Shown piece after piece: positions 25,693 to 64,000 of a stretch of DNA of 64,000 bases. The notes under the pieces are model-generated. The model ran no database searches. It saw only the letters and a program-made list of their open reading frames with translations, and was not told the origin of the DNA. Source of the stretch: a virus (taxonomy: Duplodnaviria; Caudoviricetes); IMG/VR virus record IMGVR_UViG_3300020037_001525, positions 25,938-89,937 of that record; one strand, written 5' to 3'. The translations under genes were made by a program, and so were the position numbers. Each line of letters opens with the position of its first letter. Positions within the stretch are counted from its first letter, which is position 1.

Positions 25693-26169
25693 TTAAATAG
25701 GGAATAGTATTGGTGTTGAGTAATCAAAGTCAACATCTCTTCCAGATATTTGTGACTCTGATATGTCAAATGATTCTCTTGTTATGAAGCAACCTTTGAT
25801 ACTTGCAAATATTTCTAATTTTGGTACAATAACACCACTCGGCAAAACTGTGTCCTCAACTTTCCTCAGAATATCGATTTGAACTCCATTATTGCTAAGA
25901 AGAAGTGTGTCTTCCCATTCTTGGACAGTGTTCATTCTCCTTAGTAAAGCACCAGGAATCACTTCCTTGCTTAAATCTATGGCAAATGCACCACAATTTA
26001 ATGTACCTGTCCAGTCCAATGGGGCATATTCCGATGCAACTAAAGCACCAATACCAACCACCTTTTGTAGTCTTATATTCTCGGTGCAACGTATTGATTT
26101 CATCTTCCCAATAGCAACTCCATTTACTTTTATGATTGCCAAGGGTGCTGTCATTACTCTATCTGCCAT
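25693..26169 (-). CDS. Tail tube protein
   Basis: 158 aa directly after the sheath; IIKVNGVAIGKMKSI..ENI..VVGIG pattern. Confidence 0.8.
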   Translation of the reverse strand: MADRVMTAPLAIIKVNGVAIGKMKSIRCTENIRLQKVVGIGALVASEYAPLDWTGTLNCGAFAIDLSKEVIPGALLRRMNTVQEWEDTLLLSNNGVQIDILRKVEDTVLPSGVIVPKLEIFASIKGCFITRESFDISESQISGRDVDFDYSTPILFPI

Positions 26170-61370: not shown

Positions 61371-61444
61371 GGCTTCGTAGCTTAATTGAATAAAGCAACT
61401 TTTTTGCGAAATGTGGGATATAGGTTTGAATCCTATCGAGGTCA
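61371..61444 (+). tRNA. tRNA-like element, anticodon TGC (Ala), probably degenerate
   Basis: Cloverleaf by hand: acceptor GGCTTCG/CGAGGTC, D stem GCTT/AAGC, anticodon stem ACTTT/AATGT (one mismatch), T arm ATAGG-TTTGAAT-CCTAT. No G3:U70 pair, no CCA. Confidence 0.6.
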
Positions 61445-61521
61445 CTTTTGATATACAAATAAAAATTTTTGTTTATTTTCTTTTAATGATTAAAGAGACT
61501 TATTATAACTGTGTTGTAAAA

Positions 61522-61863
61522 TTATTTTATCAACTTGCCATATCTTATCAGAAACTCTCTCTTCGCTTCCTTATCCCCAGATTTCGCTCTCCTCATCAAC
61601 TCAATACTTGAAATCTTTGTATTGAAGACAAATCCTGAAACTTTCAATTTAGCTGCAATTCTCTTGTTCAATTTGGTTAATATCCTTTCTGGTATTCTGC
61701 CTTCATTGCTTGCAATTCTCTCACTACTTATATTGGCTGTAAACCTTGAATCAGTGATATCAGAAATACTGAACATATTTCTACGGAGACCTGTAATTAT
61801 CAATAATCTATGTTTGAATAACAAGCCATCAACTTTTACTATATCTCCTATACTATTCTTCAT
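61522..61863 (-). CDS. Hypothetical basic protein
   Basis: 113 aa; KOW-like start IGDIVKV. Confidence 0.55.
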   Translation of the reverse strand: MKNSIGDIVKVDGLLFKHRLLIITGLRRNMFSISDITDSRFTANISSERIASNEGRIPERILTKLNKRIAAKLKVSGFVFNTKISSIELMRRAKSGDKEAKREFLIRYGKLIK

Positions 61864-62537
61864 CTTCTATTTTTTGCTATTATGTGTTCTAACTTTGTTA
61901 TACCGTTTTCTTTATAATCTATTTCATGCATCCATAAGAAACTTCCTGCTCTGTATAGCTTCTTATTTATACAATCCTTAACATTACCAGAAGATATTGA
62001 TTTATTTGCTTGTACTGATGAGTCAAATCTTGCCATGAAATTGCCTTCCAAATCTAACTTAACAACTGCTTTGCCTAACGCCTTTGATAACATCATTTTT
62101 GTTTCTTCACTATGATTCTTGCCATAAAATGAATTCCCATTACCTGTCATGCGTTTTGAATGTTCCAATCTTTGTTCTTGTGTTGTATTACAAATTCCTG
62201 TAAAATGTTCACTTAGACGTTTCCTTACTTCTGTAGTGTGGGTTTTACCATACATTGGGTTATTCTTGCCATTGAATCTCTTTGATGATTCTGACAATCT
62301 CCGCTTAACGTCATCAGTGTGTGTTTTACCAAACATATAGTTCTCTTCACCGAACAATATAGGATATTGTTCCCCGCCCTTTTCTTTATAACATAAGCAT
62401 CCGTTAGAATACTTCCTAAAAAGCTCGTCAAGAAACATATCTGACTTTAAAATATACCACTTTTTTTTAGTATGGACATAGTATAATTTATCATTATTAT
62501 ATGCCACCTCAATTGTGGCTAAATATAGTTTATCCAT
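61860..62537 (-). CDS. NUMOD3/NUMOD1 homing-endonuclease-like protein with degenerate GIY-YIG-like N-terminus
   Basis: Three N.(M/F)(F/Y)GK.H(T/S) repeats and C-terminal KAVVKLDLEGNFMARFDS..CINKK. Confidence 0.75.
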   Translation of the reverse strand: MDKLYLATIEVAYNNDKLYYVHTKKKWYILKSDMFLDELFRKYSNGCLCYKEKGGEQYPILFGEENYMFGKTHTDDVKRRLSESSKRFNGKNNPMYGKTHTTEVRKRLSEHFTGICNTTQEQRLEHSKRMTGNGNSFYGKNHSEETKMMLSKALGKAVVKLDLEGNFMARFDSSVQANKSISSGNVKDCINKKLYRAGSFLWMHEIDYKENGITKLEHIIAKNRR

Positions 62538-62567
62538 TGGATTTTAGCATTTAAGTTATTTTTTTTA

Positions 62568-62597
62568 CAGTCCTATCAAGTAGTTGTGTGCTATGCC
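62568..62597 (-). repeat. attC-like half site (left arm only)
   Basis: GGCATAGCACACAAC right after the stop of 62597..62980 is 14/15 complementary to that cassette's start; no partner for the inner arm TACTTGATAGGACTG was found. Confidence 0.5.
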
Positions 62598-62980
62598 TAT
62601 TGACGCACTTTGTGGTTATTGTCGTCAGACGTAGAACTATCTTCAGTTAATTTCAAATGGCTTCCAACCGATAAACATTCATATTGCTTTTGACTTACAT
62701 AGATGGTTTCAGTTCTTTCTTCACCTTTATATTTACCATTAATCTTTACTACCCAATCTTCATAATCCGTAATAACATAAGGTATCATTATAGTTGTTGT
62801 ACTCTTGCCATTTGAAATTACCATAGGCATTAATGCAACGTATGTATGTGTAGGTTCATACCATTTTTCTATAACATCGCCTTCTTCAAGTTTATTGCAG
62901 GAATAAAGGCACAGCACACAACAAAGTATTGCCAAAAGGCAGGCTGACGTGCTAAATTGAAATTTTGTAATTCTGTTCAT
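62597..62980 (-). CDS. Cassette-borne putative lipoprotein
   Basis: Hydrophobic ACLLAILCCVLCLYSC with lipobox-like LYSC. Confidence 0.6.
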   Translation of the reverse strand: MNRITKFQFSTSACLLAILCCVLCLYSCNKLEEGDVIEKWYEPTHTYVALMPMVISNGKSTTTIMIPYVITDYEDWVVKINGKYKGEERTETIYVSQKQYECLSVGSHLKLTEDSSTSDDNNHKVRQ

Positions 62981-63047
62981 ATTTTGTACTATTTTGAAAG
63001 TTTTGTAATTTTAATCCTGCCCTTCGGCAATACTCGGAACGTTAGTG
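62916..63047 (-). repeat. attC-like site 2 (132 bp)
   Basis: Minus strand: CACTAAC..AGTATTGCCGAAGGGCAGG..spacer..CCTGCCTTTTGGCAATACT..GTTGTGT. Confidence 0.7.
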
Positions 63048-63051
63048 GCAA

Positions 63052-63255
63052 TTACACCTCAACCATCGTATAAGGTCTGTATTCACCATTTTTATTTAAG
63101 CTATCTACCATTTTTTTGGCTTCTTCGTAAGTTCTTCTTCTACCACTCCAATGGTCTGGCATCTCAACTCCGTCTTTATCAAGTATCTTGTAACTGCCGC
63201 TAACATTGTGTTGCTGCAATAGCGGCTTGACGTTCTTAATTTCAACATTCTGCAT
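63052..63255 (-). CDS. Cassette-borne small hypothetical protein
   Basis: 67 aa ORF between two attC-like sites. Confidence 0.55.
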   Translation of the reverse strand: MQNVEIKNVKPLLQQHNVSGSYKILDKDGVEMPDHWSGRRRTYEEAKKMVDSLNKNGEYRPYTMVEV

Positions 63256-63331
63256 ATAATTATCTTTTAGTTGTTAATTAATCTTTTGTATTCCAAATGC
63301 CGCTACTGACAGCAACACTTGAACGTTATAC
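63198..63331 (-). repeat. attC-like site 1 (134 bp)
   Basis: Minus strand: GTATAAC..GTGTTGCTG-TCAG-TAGCGGC..spacer..GCCGCTA-TTG-CAGCAACAC..GTTAGCG, with one unpaired extra base. Confidence 0.72.
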
Positions 63332-63338
63332 GCAAGCA

Positions 63339-64000
63339 CTACATTTCGTTTCCAAATAGAGTTTGCGTTTCAAATTTTTTATTAAAATCTTCCACCCTCT
63401 TTAAAATAATATCGTAATACTTTTGCTCTTGCTCCATTACTATAAATTGTCGGTTTGTATTCAAACAAGCTATTGCAGTAGTTCCGCTTCCTGCTGTGTT
63501 ATCTAATACTAAATCGCCTTCGTTTGTGTAGGTGTTGATTAGGTATTCAAATAACTCCAATGGTTTTTCGGTTGGGTGCAGTTTGTCTTTTCTGTTTGCG
63601 TTGCTTACTTCTATTATTGAAGTCGGATAATACTCATTATTTTCAACTACACTATTTTCAAACTTGCCGTAATTACTTGTGTGTTTTCCTGTTTCAGTAG
63701 TTATTCCTTTCTTTCTAACTTTACCTCTTGTAACCATTTCAGGATTATAAATAGGTAATTTTTTGTAAAAGCAAAGTATTTGTTCGTGCCTTCTTAATGG
63801 CATACGTTTAGCGTTTAGAAATCCACTTGAAAGTTTTTTATCCCAAATCAAATCGTATTTAAACAACTTCTTATTTGAAGTAATTAAAGTGCTTGTAAAT
63901 GGTTCAGCACTTGTTAAACATATCATTCCGTTATCCTTAATAATTCTTTCGTATTCTTCCCAAAGTTTGTCAAGTGGGATAATTACATCCCATTTGTTTT
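63339..64000 (-). CDS. N6-adenine/N4-cytosine DNA methyltransferase (beta class), 5'-truncated by the window
   Basis: The frame stays open past the track start (NKWDVIIPLDKLWEEYERIIKDNG); HPTEKP, VLDNTAGSGTT. Confidence 0.88.
   Translation of the reverse strand, partial: NKWDVIIPLDKLWEEYERIIKDNGMICLTSAEPFTSTLITSNKKLFKYDLIWDKKLSSGFLNAKRMPLRRHEQILCFYKKLPIYNPEMVTRGKVRKKGITTETGKHTSNYGKFENSVVENNEYYPTSIIEVSNANRKDKLHPTEKPLELFEYLINTYTNEGDLVLDNTAGSGTTAIACLNTNRQFIVMEQEQKYYDIILKRVEDFNKKFETQTLFGNEM

Follow-up and report, generated by a model that had tools for sequence, protein, structure and literature searches.

A probable recombinase-less, integron-like cassette array with long-loop folding sites at the end of a phage contig, and its relatives in Bacteroidota and their phages

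In integrons, and in the clusters of attC sites lacking an integron integrase (CALINs), genes stand one to a cassette in a co-oriented row, separated by structured attC sites whose bottom strand is selected to fold for recombination by the integrase IntI. These sites have AAC...GTT cores and stems that vary in sequence while their pairing is kept, the ends of each cassette are complementary, and the cargo is rich in DNA methylases. An insertion specific to IntI, which reads the extrahelical bases of the folded attC, is thought to be required for integron recombination. Stem-loops of another kind, the promoter-early stem-loops (PeSLs), were reportedly described by Arbiol et al. in 2010 in the T4-type phages RB49 and phi1. 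They are said to be small and mutually similar, to lie between accessory genes in plastic regions, to carry a sigma-70 promoter and a terminator, to exchange by homology, and to be implicated in modular shuffling and mini-circles. The Xer recombinases (XerA, XerC/D) act at a single dif site with a simple 28-bp duplex core. A survey with IntegronFinder 2.0 turned up hardly any integrons in the Bacteroidetes (PMC9024848). Clusters of attC-like sites (CALINs) with methylase cargo have been described in virulent phages, where the sites were taken as integron attC (Qi et al., 2023, Front Microbiol; PMC9892861). One of these sites, P12002L_attC1, was detected by HattCI only, not by HattCI combined with Infernal, and was the sole phage site that IntI1 did not recombine (PMC9892861). 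The subject here is an array of gene cassettes in IMG/VR record IMGVR_UViG_3300020037_001525 (Caudoviricetes), a single contig of 89,937 bp with an estimated completeness of ~90%. The window analysed is a stretch of 64,000 nt (positions 25,938 to 89,937 of the record), and its edge coincides with the end of the contig.

The region 62583-64000 of the window is probably the recombinase-less, CALIN-like end of an integron-like cassette array, one of a family specific to Bacteroidota phages. Two folding sites of ~120 nt, with stems of 19-20 bp and loops of 72 nt, are set between three co-oriented genes, and each complete gene body lies between the halves (called boxes below) of an inverted repeat of its own, GTT.../...AAC, 13-16 nt long. 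All genes between 58 and 64 kb lie on the minus strand, in the order methyltransferase (cut by the edge), site a, a 67-aa open reading frame (ORF), site b, a 127-aa lipoprotein and a 225-aa NUMOD3 protein. The features, in gene-sense order, are as follows.

63325-64000, minus strand: methylase cassette, 3' part; N6/N4 DNA methyltransferase ORF cut by the contig end, stop codon at 63339-63341.
63205-63324, minus strand: site a; in sense, spacer GTTCAAGT, 5' arm 63318-63299, loop 63298-63227, 3' arm 63226-63208, spacer AAT.
63041-63204, minus strand: body of cassette A; opening box GTTAGCGGCAGTT (63204-63192), closing box AATTGCCACTAAC (63053-63041) including the stop codon.
62923-63040, minus strand: site b; in sense, spacer GTTCCG, 5' arm 63034-63016, loop of 72 nt, 3' arm 62943-62925, spacer TT.
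62583-62922, minus strand: body of cassette B, opened by the box GTTGTGTGCTGTGCCT (62922-62907), which falls within the signal peptide, and closed by the box AGGCATAGCACACAAC (62598-62583), which shares bases with the stop codon.
62538-62582, minus strand: end of the array; AAC followed by TACTTGATAGG, running into the NUMOD3 gene.
61860-62537, minus strand: NUMOD3 neighbour, outside the array; 225 aa with three NUMOD3 motifs (the DNA-binding part of a homing endonuclease).

The methylase ORF matches Pfam PF01555 (E 1e-29), and its cassette closes with the ...AAC box TGCTTGCGTATAAC (sense strand, 63325-63338). The coding sequence of the 67-aa protein of cassette A occupies 63052-63255 and that of the lipoprotein of cassette B 62597-62980. 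The lipoprotein has weak matches to PHROG 4392 and 6716, both of unknown function, and falls in a protein cluster dominated by phages.

The initial annotation of this DNA had described two inverted repeats, each beginning just after a stop codon. Both repeats are real, with slightly shifted coordinates (arms 62925-63034 and 63208-63318), and the stops lie as claimed, that of the methylase (63339-63341) directly before site a and that of the small gene (63052-63054) inside the ...AAC box. The arms of site b (62925-62943 and 63016-63034) are 19 nt long, 89% Watson-Crick and 72 nt apart, and the stem pairs fully once G.T is allowed on the minus strand. The repeat of site a is gapped and was read directly from the sequence; its arms (63208-63226 and 63299-63318) form 19 bp with one bulged base and are likewise 72 nt apart. 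Minus-strand folds exceed those of shuffled sequences both as DNA (site a, z = -3.85; site b, z = -2.0) and as RNA (z = -4.5 and -3.8), and in both sites the gene-sense strand folds better than the plus strand. When the ...AAC end of a cassette is joined to that cassette's own site and GTT... end, the folds reach -57.4 and -62.4 kcal/mol; the arrangement found in the array is less stable (-46.6 and -39.7 kcal/mol). Mismatches in the helices are nearly all G.T/G.U wobbles on the gene-sense strand, the sole exception being one C.A in the boxes of the small gene. The unpaired spacers measure 8/3 and 6/2 nt, and the site lengths of ~120-135 nt lie within the attC range of 57-141 nt. Against the attC core consensus RYYYAAC/GTTRRRY, the fit to GTTRRRY is partial (GTTAGCG, GTTGTGT and GTTATAC). 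Folding sites with extrahelical bases had been expected under the attC reading: the minus strand does fold beyond shuffles, but extrahelical bases are not conserved, since site a has one bulged base and one 3-nt bulge, site b has none, and no bulge is conserved across 90 hairpins of the wider family.

Three features had escaped the initial annotation, namely that the genes run on the minus strand, that the start codons of the downstream genes lie within the loops (63255 for the small gene, 62980 for the lipoprotein), and that, because of this, the 3' arm and GTT box of each site are coding; those of site b specify part of the lipoprotein's signal peptide. The sites match no Rfam family, and a scan for sigma-70 promoters and terminators found no terminator-like sites and no excess of promoter-like ones. 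A generic AAC-stem-GTT scan of the genome yielded no convincing further site (24 matches against 8-19 in shuffles, hence not specific). Several loops of the family share the DNA motif CAGAATGTTGAAAnTTAG, whether in frame or not.

The boxes bear out the claim that the ends of each unit are complementary to one another. Those of cassette B (62583-62598 and 62907-62922) are 16 nt long and 94% complementary, those of cassette A (63041-63053 and 63192-63204) pair at 11 of 13 positions by Watson-Crick rules with one further G.T, and in relatives the methylase cassette opens with GTTATACGCTGGC, complementary to the closing box in the window. Family-wide, for 54 of 113 GTT boxes a complement ending in AAC was found downstream, the controls giving 13 of 565. 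The boxes of cassette A recur in contig L001 around a 65%-identical homologue, with the opening box in another reading frame, and in L039 around a different gene. In L001 the box GTTAGCGGCAGTTAC stands in a frame other than that used in the window; a 4-nt indel brings the frame back into register. An exact 15-mer search with this opening box was set aside, as its 72 matches are about what chance would give; only L001/L046 and L039 are real.

Arrays of this layout, differing in their genes and gene order, are found in the IMG/VR contigs L001, L002, L003 and L039, and between methylase genes in the Polaribacter phage P12002L. Some arrays combine long-loop sites of the window type with a short form that has TCGTTTTAATG as its loop, a sequence absent from the phage genome studied here. 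The short-form pattern occurs in more than 120 viral contigs, where ~10 would be expected by chance, and in more than 120 genome contigs, of which ~80 carry true hairpins, nearly all in Bacteroidota. P12002L_attC1 is itself a short-type member (TAACGG ... TCGTTTTAATG ... GTTA) lying between methylase genes. Among 90 distinct short-type hairpins, compensatory double changes occur at 11 of 11 pairs, and pairing is 92.7% against 59% in shuffles, none of 500 shuffles being as good. A consensus of 12 homologous long-type sites, drawn from an alignment of the window's with 11 homologues from other arrays, has 22 pairs, 15 of them compensatory, with conserved G.U pairs. Homologues of the window's long-loop sites are found by blastn in many arrays, including recombinase-linked ones, and homologues of site a in L003 and L174 have compensatory changes in the stem. 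The window sites are placed in the family by their architecture, by boxes in common, by their presence together with other members in the same arrays and by blastn homology between sites; they have the AACGTT core in a long-loop variant, and family members show a TAAC core, a spacer, a covarying stem-loop, a second spacer and a GTTA core, folding on their own strand with G.T wobbles. DNA methylases are the leading cargo (13 of 85 genes), the remainder being small and mostly unknown genes.

Two wobbles are conserved in the family (alignments A2 and A5). One is a G.T at a fixed place in the box helix, where the opening box reads ...GCAGT and the closing box ATTGC..., and the other is a double G.T (GAAGG / CTTTT) in long-type stems. 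A conserved wobble may serve as a recognition feature in place of the extrahelical bases of attC.

A 32-mer from the methylase gene of the window led to six metagenome contigs, in which the methylase cassette is 92-97% identical in five other contexts (L410, L411/412, L413, L414 and L415). With the rest of the phage genome L410-L415 have nothing in common, and among themselves they share this cassette only, preceded by different hairpins. Such identity in otherwise unrelated contigs marks the exchange as recent. Homology to the window ends at 63322-63325, no more than 3 nt from the ...TATAAC core. The earlier description of a string of cassettes comprising methyltransferase, small protein and lipoprotein is upheld, and in related DNA homology breaks exactly at the cores. 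The array had also been said to run past the edge. In relatives at least one further site precedes the methylase cassette, which would place it beyond the edge, but in this phage the continuation is unreadable because the window edge is the contig end. To judge by the relatives, ~330 nt of the methylase cassette would be missing from the contig. A 304-nt unit made up of hairpin, box, small gene and box is common to L001 and L002 (92% identity); the window and L001 have only the box-to-box body in common. In 47 cases over the family a hairpin is inherited together with the downstream box and in 6 with the upstream one; in 241 pairs the hairpin is all that is shared. The breakpoints thus occur at both cores, so hairpins and gene bodies shuffle separately. 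Junctions had been placed at a single G/TT; homology ends at the cores, as this would have it, but on both sides of the hairpin, after AAC and before GTT. Probably exchange can proceed through either strand, or either arm, of the near-palindromic site, the sense strand being favoured.

Two further loci bear on start codons within sites. At L411:2028-2140 the methylase ORF appears to begin within the preceding site's loop and to continue across that site's 3' arm and GTT box, an embedded start as in the two cassettes of the window. At L346:5844-5920 a site-a-like element is represented by its 3' half only, immediately downstream of a recombinase gene; it encodes the N-terminus MTKDKIKNVKPLLQQANVSGG, close to that of the small protein in the window.

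When the proteins encoded near the sites were clustered, the three leading groups were methylases, a helicase and a tyrosine recombinase (12 loci). The recombinase, of 265-277 aa and of 266 aa in L119/L330, has domains PF13495 and PF00589 with all catalytic residues conserved. It is nearest to the archaeal-type XerA (NF040815, 172-198 bits, below the family cut-off; PDB 4a8e), to which it aligns end to end. The integron integrases come second (TIGR02249, 150-165 bits, cut-off 265), and ~48 residues of IntI4 at the IntI-specific insertion are missing from it (2a3v 179-260 versus query 177-210). To judge by its sequence, it is a short enzyme of the Xer/IntI clade without the IntI insertion. A search based on the recombinase recovered 429 viral stretches, and arrays were counted in the best 80 loci. 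In these 80 loci 166 model matches lie near the recombinase, all on its strand and all but one upstream; a regular-expression count of sites gave 69 upstream, none downstream and none on the opposite strand. In 68 of 76 recombinase loci a box of variable sequence, with TAAC at its end, is joined to the constant TATNATATAT 26-53 nt before the ATG of the recombinase. In L330 and L331, whose recombinases are 99-100% identical, the sequence is identical from just after TATAAC onwards and unrelated before it. By analogy with attI, this picture suggests insertion at a fixed point next to the recombinase gene.

Certain results weigh against extending this reading to the window, or against parts of the reading itself. 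No match to PF00589 was found anywhere in the 89.9-kb genome, which leaves any activity of the array here hypothetical; the initial annotation had seen no IntI, and the whole genome agrees. Neither another hairpin nor a TATNATATAT motif nor a recombinase gene follows AAC and TACTTGATAGG. With neither a recombinase in the genome nor a junction motif, the array is therefore a recombinase-less, CALIN-like orphan. The covariance model built from short-type sites gives no match to the window's long-loop sites, and its best local match in the genome (62380-62415, inside the NUMOD3 gene, 11.5 bits) is probably due to chance. The association of recombinase and array could in part reflect conserved synteny of related phages, and in five Bacteroidota chromosomes with sites no recombinase stands beside an array, the copies lying scattered or in small clusters. 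The presence of breakpoints at either side of the hairpin is also unlike the single-crossover scheme of integrons.

Among the readings that compete with an integron-like array, the least probable, with a likelihood close to nil, is that the inverted repeats are chance matches in AT-rich DNA. The generic AAC-stem-GTT scan does give as many weak candidates in shuffled genomes, but the fold z-scores, the homologous covarying sites and own-end complementarity far above controls have already refuted it. A reading of more weight, if still unlikely, takes the stems as mRNA structures of a polycistronic early transcript (for processing, as a stabiliser or as a start-codon insulator) and the shuffling as a by-product. 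It would account for wobbles that are all G.U on the gene-sense strand, for start codons in the 72-nt loops, for the strong RNA folds and for viral contigs in which sites are co-oriented with genes. On bacterial chromosomes, however, most sites are antisense to the flanking genes. The ratio of G.T to A.C over all box (R) helices is 102:4, and the antisense chromosomal copies retain the bias (15:1 in stems and 15:1 in box (R) helices). The wobble bias is thus fixed to the element's own strand and does not flip with the genes, which points to selection on a folded single DNA strand rather than to a feature of mRNA; the strand logic resembles that of attC. Breaks in homology exactly at the cores, the tight and directional association with a recombinase and the lack of an Rfam match also speak against an mRNA role. 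Regulatory stem-loop cassettes of the PeSL type, with promoter and terminator, whose genes are shuffled by homologous recombination between similar copies, are quite improbable. The sites do lie between small accessory genes in a plastic region, and the 241 pairs sharing only a hairpin could be understood in this way. Set against this are the lack of terminator-like sites and of any promoter excess, boundaries exact at 4-nt cores, and the differing sequences of neighbouring sites, which leave little homology to recombine on. Covariation and the strand-specific wobble bias point instead to recognition of a folded strand, and the link to a tyrosine recombinase is a further difference from PeSLs.

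The initial annotation had itself favoured genuine integron cassettes with attC sites, taken from a host integron and recombined by IntI, and this is now very improbable. In its favour are the AAC/stem/loop/stem/GTT shape, the complementary ends of units with one gene each, DNA methylases as cargo common to both systems, and the flagging of a family member in P12002L as attC by HattCI (PMC9892861). In relatives, moreover, a recombinase of the Xer/IntI clade stands at one end of the array at a fixed junction, as in integrons, and the integrase-less state of the window is that of a CALIN. Yet no IntI above the family cut-off was found in the phage or in the five Bacteroidota genomes carrying sites, a phylum where integrons are nearly absent (PMC9024848), and the enzyme linked to the arrays is short and lacks the ~48 IntI4 residues. 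The cassette genes also point towards the recombinase, inverted with respect to the canonical layout, because the hairpin is co-inherited with its downstream box and the recombinase lies downstream on the same strand. The complementary boxes are of 13-16 nt with a conserved G.T wobble rather than of 7, no bulged base is conserved, the long-loop sites include the next gene's start codon, and the one site that IntI1 failed to recombine, P12002L_attC1, belongs to this family (PMC9892861). A canonical attC nature of the sites is not supported; against it stand the short Xer-type enzyme of the relatives, the inverted genes and the IntI1 failure. For capture from a host integron no evidence was found; the family is specific to Bacteroidota and their phages. 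The initial reading is therefore partly supported: a cassette array is present, it is not a canonical integron, and an origin from the host is not demonstrable. The linked recombinase differs from Xer enzymes at dif as well, despite scoring best against archaeal-type XerA, since it adjoins arrays of many sites rather than a single dif and the sites are hairpins rather than a simple duplex core. Qi et al. describe neither the Xer-type recombinase and the own-end boxes nor the inverted orientation of the genes and the size of the family (PMC9892861). No description of an Xer-type platform was found in the literature searched, where the family is known only from that one CALIN report and where a query on the loop motif returned nothing relevant.

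Other observations concern the surroundings of the array and of its relatives. The NUMOD3 protein matches Pfam PF07460 (E 7e-21) and PHROG 314, homing endonuclease. It is without a recognisable nuclease domain and occupies the spot where relatives have the array recombinase; speculatively, the recombinase may have been displaced by insertion of a homing endonuclease. A tRNA-Ala gene (anticodon TGC; 61371-61445, plus strand) lies amid the minus-strand gene block, overlapping small mechanically called ORFs just past a 113-aa ORF that neighbours the NUMOD3 gene. No syntenic relative was found among GenBank phages by DNA or protein searches, which returned methylase similarity only, nor in IMG/VR any close phage relative by DNA ligase or any relative of the lipoprotein. 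In Flavivirga jejuensis (L326; G002:C29:214500-234400) a chromosomal cluster of sites lies amid co-oriented small genes antisense to the sites, and at least four ORFs there, identical to one another and 111 aa long, match tyrosine recombinases in the C-terminal, catalytic part only. In the cultured Flavobacterium phage vB_FspS_mumin6-3 (L197, 1.6-5.8 kb) four methylase genes stand amid tiny ORFs, with one weak match to the short-type model (E 0.67).

The hexamer AACGTT occurs in 2 copies in the 89.9 kb of the genome (~30 expected), both at cassette junctions (63038 and 63322). Other palindromic hexamers are missing as well (ACTAGT and AGATCT, 0 seen against 28 expected). This depletion suggests strong avoidance of restriction sites, in keeping with the methylase cargo. 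Because many palindromic hexamers are avoided, the rarity of AACGTT is not specific, and it was dropped as a pointer to one particular restriction site.

For the integron-like array favoured here, a mechanism may be proposed by analogy. The recombinase would recognise a folded single strand, as IntI does attC, strand exchange would take place at the TAAC/GTTA cores, and cassettes would be inserted next to the recombinase gene and excised as circles. If either strand or arm is usable, hairpins and gene bodies could be shuffled independently. In the present phage the three cassettes would be either a frozen record of past captures or units still moved in trans by a co-infecting relative. Long-loop sites would in addition supply the 5' leader, the start codon and the first 12-17 codons of the downstream gene. 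Taken jointly, the following propositions are tentative and on balance doubtful: that the sites are live substrates of an insertion-less Xer-type enzyme supplied in trans, that both strands are recombined, that hairpins and bodies are separate modules, and that long-loop sites are portable translation-start modules. As such modules they would donate leaders, start codons and even segments of a signal peptide to whichever gene body lands behind them.

If the array is of the kind proposed, an integron-like machine would have evolved or persisted without the hallmark domain of IntI in the viruses of a phylum thought to be without integrons. Sites resembling attC but lacking conserved bulges, paired with an insertion-less Xer-type enzyme, would offer a natural test of how structure-specific recombination arose from Xer. 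For annotation, the family would account for mosaic regions and for the failure of tools of the IntegronFinder type to see such sites. The window adds that arrays persist without a recombinase and that the start codon and N-terminal codons of a downstream gene can be part of a site. For phages of Bacteroidota, in marine, freshwater and gut-related lineages, such arrays would provide a route by which anti-restriction methylases and small accessory genes are swapped as ready-made units.

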